UHGV virus genome: UHGV-0022223 | DNA: 36,010 bases | Strand: one strand, 5' to 3' | Source: a virus | Shown here: positions 1-32,800 of the stretch, piece after piece | How the letters are laid out: every line of letters starts with the position of its first letter | Position numbering within the stretch: the first letter of the stretch is position 1 | The notes under the pieces: model-generated | The model's database searches: none | Told to the model about the DNA's origin: nothing | What the model saw: the letters and a program-made list of their open reading frames with translations, nothing else | Position numbers and translations under genes: made by a program

Positions 1-2678
1 CGTTCAATAATTTCCCGGTGTAGCCTGGCGCGCAGGCTTTCCTGCTTAACATTCCACATGCTGATGGTTTTCAGGTCAGCACCGATACGCACGCCGTCTA
101 GGTCGATCTCAAGGTCAGGGCGCACACGAACTTCCAGTCCCGTCTCCTCGTCAAAGCCAAAGTAGCTCACCTCAACGGCGCGGCTCGGGTGGGTTAGCAG
201 CATGCCTGCGGTCGGGTGCGAGAGCAGTGCTGACTGAATTGCCTGCGCGGTGGCAAGTTGCTGGTGGGTAACCAGCACTTTCCCTTCCGGGTTGTTGCGC
301 CACGCATCGAGCAGCTCGTCGGCGAACACTGCATCTGGTTTGACTGCCTTCACGGCCTGAATCAGATCGGCCTTCGTGCCAGAGACTTTCAGCGGTTGCA
401 GCTTCTGAGCTTCCTGCGCGACCAGGTCAGGATTGATAATCGCAAGTTGTTCGAGTAGTGCGTCGCGGCTGCCGCTGGTTTTAATCTGCGCTGGCAGGGT
501 GGCGTTGTACTCTTTGATGCACGCCTTCATTGCTGTTGCTGTCTTCTTCTGATCTGCATCGATACGTTGGAATTCAGCTGGCAGCGCCATATAGTTCTGC
601 GCCGTTTCATCCAGGCTAGCGCCCAGCGGCACCAGCGCTGGCAGGGTGGCGTTGTATTCATCCAGCAAAGCTTTGATATCGTCTGCGCTCAGTTGCGCTG
701 GCAGGCTGGCGTTGTACTCATCAATAAACGCGCGGATCGTTGCCGTGGTGGTAAATGCACCTTCCGGAATTACGGGTTCAACGCTAAATTCTTCATCGAG
801 CTGTTCTGGCTGCAACGCCAGCGCATGTACCAGGTTTCCCATGTCCAGCACTGAGGAGCGCTCTTTGACGATGGTTTTCTCAACGTGGCGCGCATTGAAG
901 TACATCAGCGAAACGCGCGCATCTTTTACCTGGGTGGAACTGATGCCGTTGGCAGCGTGGTAAACCTCGTTCGGCAGACCTTCATAGCGGCCCGGTTCGA
1001 AATAGGCAGGGTATTCCGGCGTGCTGGCGATTTCCTCCGGTGCTTCGGTGGTCATTTCCGGCTGTGAGTCGTTCGCCAGCTCCGGCGCCACGGCAGCCAG
1101 AACCTCAGCCGGGGTCAGGGAAGCTGTTTGCGGATCAGCTGCATCAGAGCTTTCGCCTGGTGGAACCGTGTTACCAGTTTCTCCTTCCGCCGGGTCAGTC
1201 TCTTCCATCTGCACATCGCTGGTGGTCTCCTCTGTAACCGGTGAACGGTCATCTGTTTGTGGTTGTTTTTCGCTCATCAGGCCATCAATGGAGAACATGC
1301 CGCCGCCGAGGTTAGCGACCTGAGGCTGGCTATCAGTGGAGGTTGCTTCAATGTTTGCTGGGTGAAGCCTTTCATCAGCAGCGCGCTGGCGCATCAGATC
1401 CACAACAGAAAGCGCAGGTTCAGGTCGTTTTTGTTCACCGGCGTTCAACTCGCCATGAAACTCTTCCAACACTTCATCAACCTTCTGCCATGCCGCATCT
1501 ACCATTTCCTGGGTAACTACTTCCTGCTTATGCTCGCTATTGCCATAAATAGGCAGCAACTCAGTCGCAGCATTAAATTCAGCCGTCATCGTCTGGTTTA
1601 CGAACTCCAGATGAGCAACCGGCGTTAGGTGGATATTCTCAGGCGCGATGCGCACCAGGTTGAAGATGGCCGCGCGGTTAACAGCCAGAACGCCGGGCTG
1701 GTTGCGCAGGATTTTGCTCCATGATTTCCATGGTTCTTCTTTGTTCGCGACAATCTCCTTGGCGCGGCGGTGGATGCTGCCCGGGATTTCCAGATGGTTG
1801 AAGTCCATAGGCAGAAGGGCACATGCAATCTCTAAATCGAGAGTGTCAAGGGTATGGTATGCATCAGGTCCACGGTCAGTGACGTAACCGCCGTTGGCAT
1901 TGGTTCCGGAATCAGTACGCTGAACACTACTGATGTGATTACCGGCAGCCCATTCACGCGCCAGGATGCCACGGTCAATGTAATCAGTCGCCGCCCACAT
2001 TCTGGTGAAACGGAGTACCAGCGCGAGTTCGTGACGCTTGTCCTGGCTGAACACTTTGCGAATGGCATCGGTGTAGCGCCACAGGTCTTTGGTGTCGTAA
2101 CCCTTCACTTCCGGGCAGTTCTCAGCAGCTAACAGCAAGTTCTGGACGTAACTGTTATCAGTGTCCATCTCCAGCGCGCCGATAGCTTCGTACTCTTCGC
2201 GGGTTACGTGGTGGCGCAGTTCGTCGGCGGTGAACTGGGAAAGCAGTTGCTTACGAAACGGCATCTGCACTACCGGGTAGAGGGTTGAGTCGTCGTCGTG
2301 TTCGTCCAGCGTGATGCCAGCGGTTTCTGGCAGCGTTGACTCAGTAGTTATGTGACTATCAACGGTCTGAGCCGTTTTCTCGTCAGAGTTTTCAGCTGTG
2401 ACTTTTGGCAGCCAGGTGCGGTCATCGTTCTGCAGTTCGTAGCGTTTGCACCAGGTGTAATCCACTGCGCCTTCTTCCGGCAGGTCGTCATATACCGGGA
2501 AATCGGTGCGGATTGGTTTGGCATAATCTTTACCGCGGCCAGTTTCTTCAATTCCGGCTTCTTCCAGTGCCACATCGAGTTGGAGATTGGCGCGCGCTAC
2601 ACTTTTCGCAGTGAACCAAATCACTGCATCTTTCTTGCCAGACTTCTGACTGGCTTTTATCAGATGGAAAAATTCCAT
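1..2678 (-). CDS. recE: RecE-like exodeoxyribonuclease VIII (partial; C-terminal part lies beyond window start)
   Basis: Uninterrupted minus-strand frame from ATG at 2678 (RBS AAGAGGA upstream) to the window edge; absent from the ORF track because truncated. N-terminal DFPVYDDLPEEGAVDYTW and TDYIDRG...RTDSGTNANGGYVTDRG blocks resemble Rac RecE from memory. Confidence 0.7.
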   Translation of the reverse strand, partial: MEFFHLIKASQKSGKKDAVIWFTAKSVARANLQLDVALEEAGIEETGRGKDYAKPIRTDFPVYDDLPEEGAVDYTWCKRYELQNDDRTWLPKVTAENSDEKTAQTVDSHITTESTLPETAGITLDEHDDDSTLYPVVQMPFRKQLLSQFTADELRHHVTREEYEAIGALEMDTDNSYVQNLLLAAENCPEVKGYDTKDLWRYTDAIRKVFSQDKRHELALVLRFTRMWAATDYIDRGILAREWAAGNHISSVQRTDSGTNANGGYVTDRGPDAYHTLDTLDLEIACALLPMDFNHLEIPGSIHRRAKEIVANKEEPWKSWSKILRNQPGVLAVNRAAIFNLVRIAPENIHLTPVAHLEFVNQTMTAEFNAATELLPIYGNSEHKQEVVTQEMVDAAWQKVDEVLEEFHGELNAGEQKRPEPALSVVDLMRQRAADERLHPANIEATSTDSQPQVANLGGGMFSIDGLMSEKQPQTDDRSPVTEETTSDVQMEETDPAEGETGNTVPPGESSDAADPQTASLTPAEVLAAVAPELANDSQPEMTTEAPEEIASTPEYPAYFEPGRYEGLPNEVYHAANGISSTQVKDARVSLMYFNARHVEKTIVKERSSVLDMGNLVHALALQPEQLDEEFSVEPVIPEGAFTTTATIRAFIDEYNASLPAQLSADDIKALLDEYNATLPALVPLGASLDETAQNYMALPAEFQRIDADQKKTATAMKACIKEYNATLPAQIKTSGSRDALLEQLAIINPDLVAQEAQKLQPLKVSGTKADLIQAVKAVKPDAVFADELLDAWRNNPEGKVLVTHQQLATAQAIQSALLSHPTAGMLLTHPSRAVEVSYFGFDEETGLEVRVRPDLEIDLDGVRIGADLKTISMWNVKQESLRARLHREIIE
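488..719 (-). repeat. Three near-identical 25-bp intragenic direct repeats (488-512, 635-659, 695-719) inside recE-like gene
   Basis: GCGCTGGCAGG(G/C)TGGCGTTGTA(C/T)TC occurs three times; encodes a repeated EYNA(S/T)LPA peptide in the minus-strand frame. Confidence 0.8.
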
Positions 2679-2816
2679 GTGAGATCCTCTTTTTTGAGTG
2701 TTAGAATCCCCGGGCCAGAGATAGCGCCCATTGGATGTTTTTTGGTTTGGTATAAATTCCGGTGTAACTTTGGTCGGTGGCACCGGACGTAGACCCCGCC
2801 TTGCGCGGGTTTTACG

Positions 2817-2981: not shown

Positions 2982-3090
2982 CAGGATTCCCCTTCTGTGC
3001 CAGCAGATAACAGAGGCGGCGAACAAACACTTCTGCCCAGTTCAGTTTTACGGCCTGCTGCCGGGTTGGTCTTCTGGCAAAATCAATCAT
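2974..3090 (-). CDS. Small early protein (possible Kil-like), hypothetical
   Basis: Track ORF 2974..3156 begins at GTG without RBS; internal ATG at 3090 (MIDFARRP...) has a strong RBS AAGGAGA. Confidence 0.35.
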   Translation of the reverse strand: MIDFARRPTRQQAVKLNWAEVFVRRLCYLLAQKGNPDV

Positions 3091-3176
3091 ATTGATCTCC
3101 TTGTTATGCCTGTCTTTTATCCACTTCAGGCTCGGTGGTATGCTGGTAGTTCTCACACAGCCAGCAAGGAATAACT

Positions 3177-3470
3177 ATGAAATCAGTAACTAAGCCATGT
3201 CCTATTTGTGGTGAAGGCGCTTTGTCTTTTAACCAGACAAATCAGTTGGTTAACATCAAAGTAAATCCACCAACTATTCGTGAAGTTCCATCAGTGGTTT
3301 ATGTTTGCGATACACACGGATGGTTTTCACTTTCAGAACAGATAAACAGCCTCGTTACATCAACAGACGACCCTGTGGCTAAACAAAAATTGGCAGTTAT
3401 CGTCAAAGAGCGATATGTGCCGGAACATGATCAGCCGTTAGCTCTGAAACCTATTGAGTCGCTCGCATAA
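3177..3470 (+). CDS. Hypothetical zinc-ribbon protein (CPICG...C..H), AT-rich, opposite orientation inside leftward early operon
   Basis: 97-aa ORF with RBS AAGGA; visibly lower GC than flanks; converges on and overlaps the 3451..3720 gene by 20 bp. Confidence 0.5.
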   Translation: MKSVTKPCPICGEGALSFNQTNQLVNIKVNPPTIREVPSVVYVCDTHGWFSLSEQINSLVTSTDDPVAKQKLAVIVKERYVPEHDQPLALKPIESLA

Positions 3471-3720
3471 GGTCTTTTCGGCTCTCACTGCGATATCCCA
3501 GGCGGTACATTTTCACGTAGGCTTTGCCACGAGGAATGCCGCCTGTTTTGTTGAATCTCTGCTGGGCGCGACGATGGTGTTTTGCTTCAGGGCTGTTTGA
3601 TCCTTTCCCGCCATCCGACCGCGAACTCGGGAGTTGCATTGGCTTTTGGCGTGAATCGAATTTACGTGCCCAGCACGCTCCAAAGCCGATCATTCCTGTT
3701 TTCTTCGTATTACCTTTCAT
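3451..3720 (-). CDS. Small basic protein, first gene downstream of PL-like promoter (function unknown; possible N-like regulator)
   Basis: Track ORF 3451..3765 starts at TTG; internal ATG at 3720 has RBS AAGGAG 7 nt upstream. K/R-rich 89-aa product. Confidence 0.5.
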   Translation of the reverse strand: MKGNTKKTGMIGFGACWARKFDSRQKPMQLPSSRSDGGKGSNSPEAKHHRRAQQRFNKTGGIPRGKAYVKMYRLGYRSESRKDLMRATQ

Positions 3721-3869
3721 CTCAATCTCCTTTGCCCTTGTCGCCAGGCTGGCGGAACGTTTCAAACCTACTGCGCGTTAATCTCACCACCTCATTCCGG
3801 TCTTCGTATGCCCCGGACGGCTACTTCGTGGGCTCCATGCCTGGGTGGTTCGTGGTGCGTCTTGGTGAT

Positions 3870-3945
3870 TGCATATTAAGCCTGAGACTTAAATCATGTC
3901 AAGCTCCAGGCGAAATGTGATTGTAAGTTTCAGGCTTAATCGTGA
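3870..3945 (-). promoter_or_regulatory. OL/PL-like region: leftward promoter with repressor operator sites
   Basis: Minus strand reads TTGACA (plus 3897-3902), 18-bp spacer, TAATAT; operator-like 17-mers TTAAGCCTGAGACTTAA (3876-3892) and TAAGTTTCAGGCTTAAT (3924-3940) match those beside the repressor gene. Confidence 0.55.
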
Positions 3946-3964
3946 TGTTCACCGAATTGCAGGC

Positions 3965-3998
3965 AAAAAAAATCCCGACGCTAAGGTCGAGATCGGGG
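3965..3998 (-). terminator. Rho-independent terminator (minus strand) upstream of PL
   Basis: Stem TCCCGA (3973-3978) / TCGGGG (3993-3998), followed on the minus strand by an 8-nt U tract (plus A8 at 3965-3972). Confidence 0.5.
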
Positions 3999-4043
3999 AC
4001 TTCGTGGCTGGGTGTTGGCGGCTGAGATGGTGGGTGAGGGTGT

Positions 4044-4073
4044 AAAAAACCCGGCGCTGTGGCCGGGTTTTTT
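4044..4073. terminator. Bidirectional rho-independent terminator ending the moron operon
   Basis: A6, then CCCGGC-gctgtg-GCCGGG, then T6; sits just after the stop of the 34-aa ORF on the minus strand. Confidence 0.7.
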
Positions 4074-4075
4074 CA

Positions 4076-4180
4076 TTACTGCTGGTTAAATCCTTTCGGC
4101 GAGTGCTGCTGTTCTTTATTACCAAATTTTTGATTTACAATGATTTTATAAGCGTTATTGAGAGCTTGCTTTATAGACAT
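4076..4180 (-). CDS. Small 34-aa basic peptide (MSIKQALNNAYKIIVNQKFGNKEQQHSPKGFNQQ), coupled to upstream 434-aa gene
   Basis: ATG at 4180 with RBS AAGGAG 6 nt upstream, 17 nt after the 434-aa gene stop; stop followed directly by the terminator. Below the track length cutoff. Confidence 0.45.
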   Translation of the reverse strand: MSIKQALNNAYKIIVNQKFGNKEQQHSPKGFNQQ

Positions 4181-4197
4181 TAATATCTCCTTATGTG

Positions 4198-5502
4198 TTA
4201 TTGACGATTAAAGTAGTTAGAGTTTAGCTCTTTAGGGAAGTAGTGTTTACGATTTACCCAAACAAATCCATCAACTTTTGATATCACAGCGACATCAACA
4301 GGCCCACCGACAGTTTCATAATCATGTGATACTTTTCTTTTGAATGCAGTGATGTTCACTAATGATTCGGCCATATACGCAAGATCTGCCTTCCCAAGTG
4401 ATTGCAACATCGATATCATTTTATTTGTATGGTTATTAACAATATAGCTTTCAAGTTTAGTATCGTGATCTTGTAAAAGTACGTTTTTGAGTTCCTCAAT
4501 TTCACTGGAGAAGTGATTGGCTAGTACTCCATTGTTCATTGCAGGGAAAATATTGCTAGAAACATAATGATTAAGCCGATCAAAAACTTCCTCTGTAAGA
4601 GTTCTGTTAAAATTAATGATGTTAGGGTTGCACCCATCAATGAAAGTTACTACTTCATCTTCTTGAGCAAATGGTATAACAAACCCCATATTGGTTACCT
4701 CATTATGGGATTTCTCATCAATATTATGGATCATCAATTTGTTTTTAAAAATGCCGTAGATATGAAGAGTGCAAATGGAAGGGTAATATTCTTCCTCTCC
4801 ATAACCTGTTATAACAATCCCTGAATATGTACGACTAGCATGGACTTTGAAAATTAAACAAGTGGAATATAATATGACTTTTTCCATAAGCTCTTGCTGT
4901 ATATTTTCACAGTTATCAAGAACAATAATTGATGAAATGTATGGCGATATTAAATCTTGTATATATGCTAAAGCATCATTAAACTCTTCTGTATCAAACC
5001 CTTCGAAAAAGAGATTATTCCTTAAGATTCCTATCTCTAAATCAAAGGCTTGCTTAACTATGTTTTGAAAAATAACATTGTCGAGTTCAACGGCGGGGTT
5101 CATTGTTAAATAGTTTACTACATTATTATCATTAATGTATCTCATCAAACCTTTGAGGTTATCAACAACAAGGTTTATAACGCAAGCCTCTCTCATTTCA
5201 TTTGTTATAAGGTCTGAGTTACCATTGATGAATTTTACAAAGTCATTAACATATTCTTTAATGGTAGGGAAACTAGTTTTCCCCAATTGTTTTCTATAGG
5301 ATTTAATTATAAGTTCCCACGGTGCGCCACCCAGTGTCGCATTATTATAAATCATGATCCCCACGGGATGGTGTTTAGATAGTTCGAATAGTTTTTCCGC
5401 ACTATTATTTATTTTTACTAATCTATTATGCTCTGTGGTGACTGCAGAGTCAGCAGCAAGGGCGATTCCAGTATTATTTATTACAACAATCTCAGCTGTC
5501 AT
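4198..5502 (-). CDS. 434-aa protein with proteasome-beta/HslV-like Ntn-hydrolase sequence blocks and a large internal insertion; AT-rich moron
   Basis: Long ORF in strongly AT-rich DNA. Starts MTAEIVVINNTGIALAADSAVT...KLF (Thr after Met, Asp about 16 residues later, Lys before LF), has a TGYGEEE block, and ends GGPVDVAVISKVDGFV, which closely resembles the proteasome beta C-terminal strand recalled from memory. Confidence 0.8.
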   Translation of the reverse strand: MTAEIVVINNTGIALAADSAVTTEHNRLVKINNSAEKLFELSKHHPVGIMIYNNATLGGAPWELIIKSYRKQLGKTSFPTIKEYVNDFVKFINGNSDLITNEMREACVINLVVDNLKGLMRYINDNNVVNYLTMNPAVELDNVIFQNIVKQAFDLEIGILRNNLFFEGFDTEEFNDALAYIQDLISPYISSIIVLDNCENIQQELMEKVILYSTCLIFKVHASRTYSGIVITGYGEEEYYPSICTLHIYGIFKNKLMIHNIDEKSHNEVTNMGFVIPFAQEDEVVTFIDGCNPNIINFNRTLTEEVFDRLNHYVSSNIFPAMNNGVLANHFSSEIEELKNVLLQDHDTKLESYIVNNHTNKMISMLQSLGKADLAYMAESLVNITAFKRKVSHDYETVGGPVDVAVISKVDGFVWVNRKHYFPKELNSNYFNRQ

Positions 5503-5526
5503 TGCAAAACATCCCGTGTAGTAGTG

Positions 5527-5560
5527 ATAAATATTAATTAAATTGATAGTTTTTCAATCT
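5527..5560 (-). promoter_or_regulatory. Candidate promoter for the moron operon
   Basis: Minus strand reads TTGAAA (plus 5552-5557) followed 15-18 nt later by an AT-rich -10 candidate (TAATAT/TATTTA); weak RBS. Alternatively read through from the repressor gene. Confidence 0.25.
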
Positions 5561-5641
5561 AACATAAATGGCGGAATCACCCCCCAGTAAAGACATCATT
5601 GTCTCATGGGAACTAAAAATTCAGGACAAACCTAAAGCGAT

Positions 5642-6028
5642 TCAGTCCCCCTGCGAGCGAATCCGCCCCTTCATGTACTTCTCATACAGCTCATCCAGTT
5701 CCTTAAGACGTATCGAAAAGATGCGGAGCATGTTCTGTTGCTCTTCTTCTGGCAGCTGGCGGTAGAGCTCAAGCAGGCGCTGTTCGTCCGGCTTAAGTCC
5801 GTCCTTCTCGCCGACATCCTCACCGAGTAACCAAGGCACAGACACGCCAGCTGCGTCAGCGACAGCGAGAGCTGATTTCTTGCTGATCACGCCTTTTTTA
5901 AACCAGCCGTTCACAGACTGCGGGGTTACCCCAGCAACCCTGGCCATATCGGATTTGGTCATACCGCGCCCGTTCAGCTCTGAAAGGCGTTCGACAAGTA
6001 TCGGATTAAGTACGGTTTTCTCTTTCAT
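5642..6028 (-). CDS. Prophage repressor, HTH XRE family, DicA/RacR-like (no S24 peptidase domain)
   Basis: 128 aa; N-terminal HTH (MTKSDMARVAGVTPQSVNGWF) and a C-terminal LLELYRQLPEEEQ segment resembling DicA from memory; divergent from a Cro-like gene with operators between them. Confidence 0.75.
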   Translation of the reverse strand: MKEKTVLNPILVERLSELNGRGMTKSDMARVAGVTPQSVNGWFKKGVISKKSALAVADAAGVSVPWLLGEDVGEKDGLKPDEQRLLELYRQLPEEEQQNMLRIFSIRLKELDELYEKYMKGRIRSQGD

Positions 6029-6132
6029 GGTTAGAAGAATAAGCCTTTTGCTTAAATTTGAAAATTCGCCTCAGGCTTGACAATAAATTAAGTCTCAGGC
6101 TTAATTTGATTGTATTCAAATCGGAGACAACG
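6029..6132. promoter_or_regulatory. OR-like region: divergent PR/PRM-type promoters with three operator sites
   Basis: Operator-like sites at 6040-6055 (TAAGCCTTTTGCTTAA), 6068-6080 (GCCTCAGGCTTGA) and 6088-6104 (TTAAGTCTCAGGCTTAA); TTGACA at 6077-6082 gives a rightward promoter. Confidence 0.6.
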
Positions 6133-6351
6133 ATGAACGGGTTAACGAAAGCCATTAAGTCCGCTGGCACTGCAACAAATCTCGCAACCATGCTGGGCAT
6201 CAAGCCGATGTCGGTCAGCCGCTGGAAAAACCGGTACCAGGGCGTGGTGCCTGCTGATCGGGTCCTTCAAATCTACGCGGCTACCGGCGTAACTCCACAC
6301 GAGCTGCGCCCTGATCTCTATCCAAACCCAAGTGACGGTTTACCAAAGTAA
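6133..6351 (+). CDS. Cro-like / YdaS-family HTH regulator
   Basis: Internal ATG of track ORF 6058..6351 with RBS GGAGA; 73 aa with HTH (TATNLATMLGIKPMSVSRW); divergent from the repressor. Confidence 0.7.
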   Translation: MNGLTKAIKSAGTATNLATMLGIKPMSVSRWKNRYQGVVPADRVLQIYAATGVTPHELRPDLYPNPSDGLPK

Positions 6352-6362
6352 GGAATGTAACT

Positions 6363-6902
6363 ATGCAATCACTTACGTATCAACAGAGTAACGGGTTCAT
6401 TTCAGCAGCGCTGATAAATCGCGCTCAACCAAAACCGGGCGTCAGTTGTGGTGCCCTCCGTGATGCTGTTCGCGCCTGGTCAGCAGTAGCCGGGCAGGAC
6501 GTTGTAACGGCCCTGATCGTTGAAGAGTGGCACCGGATAGGTGGCGAAGGTATCGACTTTCCGGCAGATCACAGCCGTGCCCGGCAGAAGCTGTTCCGCT
6601 TCTTGGATAACCATTTCAACAGCGAACGGTACCGCGAGAACGTCCGCCAGCTGACGCCGGCAATCCTCGCTGTCCTGCCGATTGAATACCGCAATCGTCT
6701 GCTACCAGAAGACAACGTAATGGCTCGTCTGGCAAGGCTGGAGAAGGAAACCAGCGAAGCGAAGATTGCTGTCGCAATGGATGCGCCACGTCATCAGAAG
6801 CTGAAAGAGTTGAGCGAGGGGATCGTGGAGATGTATCGCGTTGACCCTGGGTTAACCGGTCCGTTGATGGAAATGGTGCAGATTATGCTGGGGGCTATAT
6901 GA
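6363..6902 (+). CDS. YdaT-like / CII-position regulator (hypothetical)
   Basis: 179-aa ORF with RBS AAGGAA directly after the cro-like gene; position matches Rac ydaT. Confidence 0.5.
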   Translation: MQSLTYQQSNGFISAALINRAQPKPGVSCGALRDAVRAWSAVAGQDVVTALIVEEWHRIGGEGIDFPADHSRARQKLFRFLDNHFNSERYRENVRQLTPAILAVLPIEYRNRLLPEDNVMARLARLEKETSEAKIAVAMDAPRHQKLKELSEGIVEMYRVDPGLTGPLMEMVQIMLGAI

Positions 6903-6986
6903 CCGGTTCAAAAATGGCGAAAGCCGCGGTGCTCGAACACCAACGGCTTTCAGGTGCAAAAACAGTGCGTAATTGCGGAGAACAGT

Positions 6987-7895
6987 ATGTCAAACACCGC
7001 TGAAATAATCAATTTCCCAAATAAAACCGAACAACCGGGAGGTCGTATGGCCGACCTGTCGAACGGGTATACCAAGGTCGCTAACGAGATCCAACAGCTT
7101 AAGCCTCGCCTGAGACTGTCAGGCCGGGAATGGCAATGTTTTGAGGCGGTGATCTGGCTTACCTACGGCTGGAACAAGAAACAGGACCGCGTGACAAATA
7201 CGGTTATTGCCGAGCTTACGGGCCTGAGCGATACGCATGTATCGGACGCGCTTAAGTCTCTCGCAGAACGCAAAATCATCTTTTCACAGAAGCAGGGCAT
7301 GATGAAAATCGTCGGTGTAAACACTGACCTTTCAGCATGGATTTTAGACAAACCGGAAACGGGAAGAAAATTCCCGAAAACAGGAAAATCCTTCCCGAAA
7401 TCAGGAATAACCTTCCCGAAAACGGTAGACACCCAATACAAGAACAAGAACAGTATTAAAAGATCTTCGTCCGAGAATTCTGACGAATCCTCTGACGCAC
7501 GTCTGAAGAAATTTTTATCAACTCATCCTGAAGCTGCGGTCTACACACCATCCGGTGCGAAGTGGGGCTCTGCTGAAGACCTCGAGACAGCTAAGTGGAT
7601 TTCCTCCAGGGTGAAGCTGATTAACCCAACCTGCAAAGCCCCGGACATGACCTCCTGGTCTAACACTGTTCGCCTGATGCGCCAGATAGACGACCGGTCG
7701 CACCAGGACATCTGCGCGCTGTATGACTGGGCTAGCAAACACCACTTCTGGCAGACCAACATCCTGAGTCCCGAAAGCCTGCGTAAGCAGTGGGACAAGC
7801 TGACAATGCAGCGTAACGCCGGAGGTGAGCAGCGCGCTGTCAAGCCAGATCTGGACTTCAACAACACTGACTGGGCCTATGGGGTGATCCGATGA
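6987..7895 (+). CDS. O: Replication initiator, lambda O-like
   Basis: Start at internal ATG (MSNTAEIINFP...) with RBS GGAGAA; N-terminus and RMADLSNGY resemble lambda O from memory; iterons inside the gene; stop overlaps the P start. Confidence 0.75.
   Translation: MSNTAEIINFPNKTEQPGGRMADLSNGYTKVANEIQQLKPRLRLSGREWQCFEAVIWLTYGWNKKQDRVTNTVIAELTGLSDTHVSDALKSLAERKIIFSQKQGMMKIVGVNTDLSAWILDKPETGRKFPKTGKSFPKSGITFPKTVDTQYKNKNSIKRSSSENSDESSDARLKKFLSTHPEAAVYTPSGAKWGSAEDLETAKWISSRVKLINPTCKAPDMTSWSNTVRLMRQIDDRSHQDICALYDWASKHHFWQTNILSPESLRKQWDKLTMQRNAGGEQRAVKPDLDFNNTDWAYGVIR
7353..7432 (+). repeat. Origin iterons inside the O gene (about four direct repeats) followed by an AT-rich stretch
   Basis: CCGGAAACGGGAAGAA, TTCCCGAAAACAGGAAAA, TTCCCGAAATCAGGAATA, TTCCCGAAAACGGTAGAC; each encodes part of the FPKTGK-like peptide repeat. 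Confidence 0.7.
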
Positions 7896-32764: not shown

Positions 32765-32800
32765 AAAGCCCCGGGTGCGCTAACACTTCGGGGCTTTTTA
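32765..32800 (+). terminator. Rho-independent terminator
   Basis: AAAGCCCCG ... CGGGGCTTT followed by a T tract. Confidence 0.6.

Follow-up and report, generated by a model that had tools for sequence, protein, structure and literature searches.

The DNA stretch UHGV-0022223, a virus genome of 36,010 nucleotides (nt) that we call the window, is a Rac-type lambdoid prophage. This work addresses a short block at positions 3965-4073, where two hairpins, each followed on the minus strand by a run of U, enclose a C-rich spacer. The block very probably closes, at its 3' end, the leftward lysogenic (immunity) operon of this lambda/Rac-like prophage. As a tandem unit, it would keep lysogenic transcription off the left early promoter (PL) and the early-left operon. 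Along the minus strand, the locus runs from the repressor gene through a 139-nt gap into a cargo gene of 434 amino acids (aa), named ORF434 after its open reading frame (ORF), then a 35-aa ORF, hairpin 1, the 49-nt spacer, hairpin 2, the left operators (OL) with PL, a leader and the early-left genes. This gene order is the lambda plan, cI-rexA-rexB-tIMM-OL/PL. The repressor gene (5642-6028, 128 aa, family HTH_3) starts the leftward immunity operon. The repressor-cargo intergenic region (5503-5641) contains a promoter-like site and no canonical terminator, and is followed by ORF434 (4198-5502), which is AT-rich (GC content 0.31-0.36), and by the previously unannotated 35-aa ORF (4076-4183), the last gene before hairpin 1. 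Hairpin 1 (4044-4073), the spacer (3995-4043), hairpin 2 (3965-3994), OL/PL (3873-3940) and the PL leader (3731-3866) complete the series, and all these features belong to the minus strand.

Structurally, hairpin 1 is a perfect 12-nt inverted repeat, AAAAAACCCGGC / GCCGGGTTTTTT (4044-4055 and 4062-4073), around a 6-nt loop. On the plus strand it consists of A6 (4044-4049), CCCGGC (4050-4055), the loop GCTGTG (4056-4061), GCCGGG (4062-4067) and T6 (4068-4073), and the minus-strand RNA reads A6 (4073-4068), CCCGGC (4067-4062), the loop CACAGC (4061-4056), GCCGGG (4055-4050) and U6 (4049-4044). The stem contains 6 base pairs (bp), all of them G-C, or 8 bp when the flanking A-U pairs are counted. 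In its context the minus-strand RNA folds at -18.9 kcal/mol (z -4.1, with none of 200 shuffles as good), the 22-nt core having a free energy (dG) of -14.0, and the plus-strand RNA folds at -22.6 kcal/mol (z -4.6). By this predicted fold, hairpin 1 is a strong terminator. Its A tract begins 2 nt past the stop codon of the 35-aa ORF, and on the repressor-sense strand it presents the GC-rich hairpin and U tract of the tIMM type. The first-pass annotation, made from the letters of the window, had described a hairpin with flanking A6/T6 tracts at 4044-4073, and the repeat and its folds bear this out.

The whole window was scanned on both strands for terminators, defined by a stem dG <= -9 and at least 6 T in 8. 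The scan returned 20 sites, against 2-10 (mean 6.4) in 10 dinucleotide shuffles, and hairpins 1 and 2 are adjacent minus-strand hits, about 75 nt apart. Both hairpins are confirmed as real, with minus-strand terminator form, at 4044-4073 and 3965-3994. Elsewhere in the window, another strong bidirectional hairpin (AAGCCCCGGG...CGGGGCTT, 32766-32796) is found in the tail-gene region, where it adjoins a low-GC stretch; its energies are -18.0 kcal/mol on the plus strand and -17.2 on the minus strand.

Hairpin 2 is weaker than hairpin 1, with a stem energy of -10.6 kcal/mol. Its best minus-strand stem, 3994-3971 (GAUCUCGAC/GUCGGGAUU), has 9 pairs including two G-U and the loop CUUAGC; in the core, UCUCGAC (3992-3986) pairs with GUCGGGA (3979-3973) across the loop at 3985-3980, and U8 (3972-3965) follows. 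A second minus-strand terminator had already been proposed here, with a stem at 3973-3998. The stem with its U8 exists, and that register differs slightly from 3994-3971 and is less stable. Hairpin 2 is no terminator on the plus strand, because A8 precedes the stem there. It sits about 25 nt from the outer OL operator and is predicted to act in one direction, as a second intrinsic terminator or a pause site. In most relatives the stem is perfect (AUCCCGAC/GUCGGGAU), with a mean dG of -12.3 and always U7-8. When the consensus of hairpin 2 (AUCCCGAC-CUUAGC-GUCGGGAU-U8) is aligned by inspection on the minus strand with hairpin 1 (AACCCGGC-CACAGC-GCCGGGUU-U6), 20 of the 26 positions are shared, and the stem differences fall at paired positions (G-C vs A-U; A-U vs U-A). 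Hairpin 2 is probably a diverged duplicate of hairpin 1. Related loci also show the pair reduced to one. An Atlantibacter locus (L020) holds a single hybrid hairpin that joins a left arm from hairpin 2 to a right arm from hairpin 1, with the spacer deleted, which is the expected outcome of recombination between the two copies. In the group of E. coli SZQ1 and others (L004), hairpin 1 is lost and a perfect 8-bp hairpin 2 is kept.

Between the hairpins lies an extremely C-rich tract, which the first-pass annotation overlooked. On the minus strand (4043-3995), the 49 nt of the spacer contain 27 C, 5 G and 17 YC dinucleotides (Y, C or U), with a predicted minimum free energy of 0.0, and the spacer ranks first of the 71,924 segments of 49 nt on both strands of the 36 kilobases for C minus G. 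It is untranslated, because it lies downstream of the last stop codon. Among 49 relatives its length ranges over 33-50 nt, at a mean C fraction of 0.49 and G fraction of 0.10; the middle part diverges in sequence, and the part CCCUCACCCACCAG is fairly conserved. C-rich, G-poor, unstructured and untranslated RNA is what defines a Rho utilization (rut) site, a class for which 49 nt is short, and hairpin 2 with its U8 stands directly downstream and could serve as the pause. As a candidate rut tract, the spacer may recruit Rho as a back-up layer, to which we give somewhat less than an even chance. The part of the spacer beside hairpin 2 also resembles a piece of the PL leader, as a direct repeat links 3994-4014 to 3818-3847 at 77-86% identity (ACTTCGTGG...CTGGGTG), and this repeat suggests that the region upstream of OL arose partly by an old duplication of leader sequence.

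The next elements on the minus strand are OL and PL. A 17-bp palindrome, TTAAGCCTGAGACTTAA, at 3876-3892 recurs identical and inverted at 6088-6104, between the repressor and cro-like genes, and half-related operator copies lie at 3924-3940 and 6070-6080. The two operators at OL, 3876-3892 and 3924-3940, are arranged as an inverted pair. PL has its -35 element TTGACA at 3902-3897 and, after an 18-nt spacing, its -10 element TAATAT at 3878-3873 on the minus strand, overlapped by the 3876-3892 palindrome. The OL/PL assignment is verified, because the operator is identical to the copy at the right operator (OR), so that the two hairpins lie between the cargo cassette and a PL/OL-like region as had been claimed. 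The leader beyond PL is nearly invariant among Rac-like prophages of different immunities. Observed over 3731-3868, it has no ORF and its 5' part is C-rich; the operators differ among the prophages that share it. Its core (3792-3843) also occurs in mEp237, SPN3UB, SfV, SfII, ST64B and others. A put-like or other structured antitermination RNA in the leader (3731-3868) was considered and ruled out, as the fold is no better than shuffles (z +1.4).

Lambda offers the closest comparison. Its region 35300-38200 was taken, and the stretch from OL3 to rexB was scanned for minus-strand terminators. The sole strong one, AACCCGGCCUCAGCGCCGGGUU then UUUUCUUU at 35826-35805, overlaps the rexB stop. Its counterpart in the window is AACCCGGCCACAGCGCCGGGUU then UUUUUUAC, with stems identical to those of lambda and a loop that differs at one position, and the 22-nt core of hairpin 1 is identical to lambda 35826-35805 at 20 of 22 positions. 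Across 2.2 megabases of fetched prophage loci, the tIMM-like hairpin is found almost only at the position after the cargo and before PL. In lambda, tIMM is described as the intrinsic terminator at which the PRM and PLIT transcripts end, right after rexB (bioRxiv 10.1101/2021.04.19.439022). Judged by sequence and place, hairpin 1 is the homologue of lambda tIMM. Both have the form AACCCGGC-N6-GCCGGGUU with a U tract on the repressor strand, both immediately follow the final lysogen-expressed cargo gene, upstream of OL/PL, and the same role is proposed for both. However, the hairpin of lambda stands alone, about 150 nt from OL3, whereas the window has a second, diverged copy with U8 past a 49-nt C-rich tract, 25 nt from the operator. 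The cargo here has no relation to rexAB, and a short HTH_3 protein of the Rac/YdaS-YdaT type serves as the repressor. Tandem intrinsic terminators are known elsewhere, an example being rrnB T1-T2. Like that pair, the block places two hairpin and U-tract units in series on one strand, an arrangement that would lower read-through, but its copies look like diverged duplicates and an extreme C-rich tract separates them.

Conservation was followed by pattern scans of genome, viral and metagenome collections, which gave 78 loci with a Rac-type PL leader beside the hairpin 2 motif. Together with 5 full-block loci from a second, leader-anchored scan, these yielded 49 distinct sequences with both hairpins. 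Exact-pattern matches to the hairpin 2 motif in Burkholderia and Pseudidiomarina were chance matches, and were dropped by requiring an adjacent Rac-type leader. Near relatives are close: 3731-6500 is present at 99.8% identity in about 12 E. coli prophages, that of NCTC 13148 among them, with the left breakpoint at 3730/3731. In further E. coli prophages only the leader, the OL flank and the terminators are common, and the operators and cassettes differ (HicAB, for example). Within the 49 distinct blocks, 96.3% of the stem cells are paired, against 33-52% when the partners are slid by 1-3 columns; the loops vary freely, and hairpin 1 shows double-sided changes from G-C to A-U and from C-G to U-A. 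Covariation as a proof of structure was nevertheless set aside, since two double-sided changes are suggestive and not decisive. The U run after hairpin 1 is U6 in 34 of the blocks, U5 in 7 and U3-4 in 8, and U7-8 follows hairpin 2 in all 49, while a plus-strand T tract at hairpin 1 is present in 8. Non-Watson-Crick cells of the core stems, which are not independent events, comprise 22 G-U, a pair only in the minus-strand RNA, vs 4 A-C; one arm of hairpin 2 was set by the search pattern itself. Only the minus-strand U tracts are conserved, and by this comparison of sequences the strand of action would be the minus strand.

The flank to the right of the block varies. In nearly all loci the stop of a minus-strand ORF lies 0-46 nt from hairpin 1, and the first 600 nt of the 48 loci with enough flank group into 32 unrelated clusters. 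The terminal cassette genes match the PADLOC models PD-T4-9_C, PDC-S42, PDC-M66B, PDC-M63B and others, as well as the Pfam families PIN, SecB, PP2C and ParA-like; none of them matches any repressor family. The terminator block is phage backbone and not moron, because 32 unrelated cassettes abut the same block, and on these alignments the slot before the terminators is a cargo hot spot, like that of rexAB in lambda. To address generality, 100 distinct prophages were sampled with 15 nt of shared PL leader as the sole criterion. At least one minus-strand terminator-like site lies within 460 nt beyond PL in 82% of them; at dG <= -9 the proportion is 69%, vs 15% of random stretches from the same loci. 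Two or more such sites occur in about a quarter. The hairpins differ by lineage, with about 5 of the 100 carrying the full block and about 10 more hairpin 1 alone.

What the block would terminate depends on transcription from the right. The stretch from the repressor stop (5642) to the ORF434 start (5502) lacks a canonical terminator and offers no more than weak hairpins whose U tracts are poor, the best of them at 5667-5636, and co-transcription of the cassette with the repressor is therefore plausible. A promoter-like TTGAAA-16-AATATT lies at 5557-5530. The cassette is possibly read with the repressor, from its own promoter, or both. The 35-aa ORF (MSIKQALNNAYKIIVNQKFG...) has an AAGGAG ribosome-binding site and directly follows ORF434, forming a two-gene cassette. 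Homologous ORFs of 34-35 aa also follow ORF434 homologues in a Klebsiella prophage, in the same cI-to-PL slot, and in a Serratia prophage, in the Q-holin slot (loci L243, 3832-3939, and L247, 3823-3927), and in these three different contexts the two-gene cassette ends each time in a CCCGGC/GCCGGG hairpin. The family of ORF434 comprises more than 6000 unannotated proteins. Its AlphaFold model, built with 40 homologues, reaches a predicted local distance difference test score (pLDDT) of 86.9 and a predicted template modelling score (pTM) of 0.81, and this confident model describes a proteasome beta-subunit-like N-terminal nucleophile (Ntn) fold. The invariant residues are M1-T2, an AADS motif with D18, and K30/K37; we take T2, D18 and K30/K37 to be the counterparts of Thr1, Asp17 and Lys33 in threonine proteases of the proteasome type. 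Searches with Pfam, PADLOC and NCBIfam gave no informative match for ORF434 or the 35-aa ORF, and only PHROGs of unknown function were matched; a literature search for proteasome-like defence genes in prophages returned nothing relevant.

The remaining genes of the window fit this layout. The first gene of the PL operon is ORF89 (3451-3720, minus strand, 89 aa, PHROG 29236, without assigned function). A mosaic joint at 3730/3731 falls just before its ribosome-binding site, and relatives carry kil at this place. A 97-aa Zn-ribbon ORF, ORF97 (3177-3470, plus strand, CPICG motif, PHROG 31519), lies in a low-GC patch, runs against the PL operon and shares 20 nt with the end of ORF89; hairpin 1 is the first plus-strand terminator downstream of it, and its transcript, if made, would be antisense to ORF89, the leader and PL. 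For ORF89 and ORF97, Pfam, PADLOC and NCBIfam were uninformative and only PHROGs of unknown function were matched. Small minus-strand ORFs separate ORF97 from the RecE-like gene (3..2681, minus strand, Pfam Exonuc_VIII). To the right of the repressor are a YdaS/Cro-like gene, YdaT and the replication genes O and P, with lysis, terminase and tail genes further along. A megablast of 3000-7000 against phage genomes returned short mosaic matches only. In phage mEp237 (L005), an unannotated plus-strand ORF of about 75 aa lies at 3730-3980, between OL/PL and a tIMM-like hairpin, and converges on the immunity-side genes.

With the block as the end of the immunity operon, the following course of events can be proposed. 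A polymerase coming from the repressor promoter, and possibly also from the cassette promoter, would meet hairpin 1 first, 2 nt past the last stop codon, where most transcripts should be halted. A polymerase that reads through would make 49 nt of untranslated, unstructured and extremely C-rich RNA, and would then run into hairpin 2 and its U8, some 25 bp short of the outer OL operator. In this way the tandem unit would shield the PL region and the early-left operon from lysogenic transcription. That operon consists here of the leader, ORF89 and the RecE-like gene, and in relatives kil comes first in it. We infer both termination in vivo and the co-transcription of the cassette with the repressor. 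The insulating function is likewise deduced: orientation, position and tIMM homology all agree with the earlier proposal that the PL operon is insulated from lysogenic transcription. The suggestion that the cassette follows the expression pattern of lysogen-expressed exclusion genes also fits, since in relatives this slot is occupied by defence and toxin-antitoxin genes, known or candidate.

Several points weigh against this account. Read-through into the cassette could be reduced by a weak hairpin (5667-5636, tail UUUAGGUU) that overlaps the stop codon of the repressor, and the candidate promoter of the cassette (5557-5530) matches the consensus at only 9 of 12 positions. In its 48-nt context hairpin 2 is no better than shuffles (z -1.2) and includes two G-U pairs, and the spacer is shorter than classical rut regions. 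The covariation is thin, with two double changes, both in hairpin 1, in nearly invariant stems, and the search pattern fixed one arm of hairpin 2. Additionally, conservation of the block could partly reflect recent common descent or recombination at the module joint, not functional selection.

Other readings of the same block refine or compete with its role as the end of the immunity operon. One refinement, which we hold tentatively and at rather less than even probability, is a three-layer fail-safe composed of an intrinsic terminator, a Rho loading site and a pause or intrinsic terminator, in which the C tract and hairpin 2 would be as important as hairpin 1. The spacer stands at the top of the 36 kilobases for C-over-G skew, is unstructured, carries 17 YC dinucleotides, lies untranslated past the last stop codon and has kept its composition, not its sequence, in the 49 relatives; K-12 Rac depends on Rho and NusG for the silence of kil, and a G-poor stretch follows lambda tIMM too. 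On the other hand, 49 nt is short for a rut site, an efficient hairpin 1 would let few polymerases reach the C tract, and the trac element of K-12 is not homologous to the block. Recombination gives a different account, which we consider somewhat unlikely: the shared hairpin sequence at a module boundary would provide homology for cassette swaps, and the tandem copy would be a by-product of duplication and not a second terminator under selection. In 32 cassette types the breakpoint does coincide exactly with the right edge of hairpin 1, the operators to the left vary as well around a constant block, the ORF434 cassette travels with a CCCGGC/GCCGGG hairpin in three contexts, the hairpins are alike at 20 of 26 positions, and the L020 hybrid is what recombination between copies predicts. 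Yet this account leaves the strand-specific conservation of the U tracts and the bias of G-U over A-C unexplained; the differences between the hairpins are compensatory, and therefore both stems are maintained; and in the L004 group, where hairpin 1 is gone, hairpin 2 is improved.

The first-pass annotation had also called hairpin 1 bidirectional, and it is unlikely that in this phage it serves additionally to stop rightward antisense RNA, for instance from the Zn-ribbon ORF (3177-3470), before the cassette. The hairpin folds on both strands (dG -22.6 on the plus strand), its perfect A6/T6 flanks are those of a bidirectional intrinsic terminator, and it is the sole strong plus-strand terminator within 3100-4110. 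However, no plus-strand gene ends at it, the nearest plus-strand ORF stopping at 3470, and the T tract, present in only 8 of the 49 related blocks, does not show the selection of both tracts expected where convergent units are served; it travels with the cassette type, including in E. coli prophages without the plus-strand ORF. An A tract before a stem also aids termination in the minus direction, which counts further against this use, and the bidirectionality is probably incidental. Improbable in our judgement is that hairpin 1, the C tract and hairpin 2 (about 110 nt) form a conserved functional RNA made constitutively in lysogens or, in a milder form, a dedicated Rho-loading module. The functional RNA could be a C-rich small RNA (sRNA) or sponge from the 3' untranslated region (UTR), bound by Hfq or ProQ, with its end at U8 and with G-rich targets in trans, for instance Shine-Dalgarno sequences or G/U-rich sRNA seeds; the milder form, if true, would make early-left silencing Rho-dependent. 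That the block is released as a stable sRNA, either 3'-UTR-derived or a read-through product, whose C-rich single-stranded seed acts in trans in lysogens, is very improbable. Its layout of a 5' stem-loop, an unstructured tract and a terminator with U8 resembles that of Hfq-type sRNAs, the part CCCUCACCCACCAG is fairly conserved, and leader-derived sRNAs such as KilS are known in Rac-type prophages. Against it, there is no promoter room between the hairpins, and the spacer varies in mid-sequence and length (33-50 nt) with its composition kept, which fits a rut site better than a seed. Of the features of an Hfq-type sRNA (a promoter or processing site, a conserved seed, a family match, a long-U terminator), only the last is present. 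Over the whole window, Rfam gave nothing at the gathering score, and at a permissive threshold only generic terminator look-alikes (best AgrB, E 0.036), with no match above chance.

The role of the block as an insulator at the end of the immunity operon has a functional parallel in the Rac prophage of E. coli K-12, whose trac/timm element silences kil (kilR) by Rho- and NusG-dependent termination of the PRM-racR transcript, and where failure is lethal (PMC4150792). The need for insulation is real in the Rac-like group, because the loss of repressor-side termination before kil is lethal in K-12 Rac. The two prophages belong to the same phage group, with RecE, YdaS and YdaT neighbours; in both, repressor-side transcription must be kept off kil and the early-left operon; and in both, C-rich unstructured untranslated RNA is the proposed Rho entry. 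Unlike the block, the K-12 element acts within racR with its rut in the 5' UTR, whereas here two intrinsic terminators are found and Rho may take part. No DNA homology was detected between this region and kilR-sieB-racR of K-12 Rac, KilS included. Rac-type prophages also make leader-derived sRNAs, such as KilS from the kilR 5' UTR of K-12 Rac (PMC8175672). KilS, like the block, is a short non-coding element by PL/kil of a Rac-type prophage and ends at an intrinsic terminator, but it lies in the leader, downstream of the kil promoter, whereas the block lies upstream of OL/PL at the end of the operon from the opposite side, and the two have no sequence similarity.

Taken alone, the terminator finding is textbook biology, the known lambda tIMM kind in tandem form. 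More unusual is the cargo protein, a predicted proteasome-like threonine protease that has a micro-protein as partner. The value of the block lies in placing the lysogenic operon of this prophage on the lambda plan, with repressor, cargo, tIMM and OL/PL in this order, and in marking the slot between repressor and terminator as a hot spot, where one conserved block is abutted by at least 32 cassettes, several of them defence or toxin-antitoxin systems, known or candidate. A simple rule follows for Rac-like prophages: cargo expressed in the lysogen is to be sought between the repressor gene and the tIMM-like hairpin. Additionally, the tandem form with its rut-like tract suggests how toxic early genes such as kil stay silent, and would tie this block to the Rho-dependent silencing of kil in Rac.
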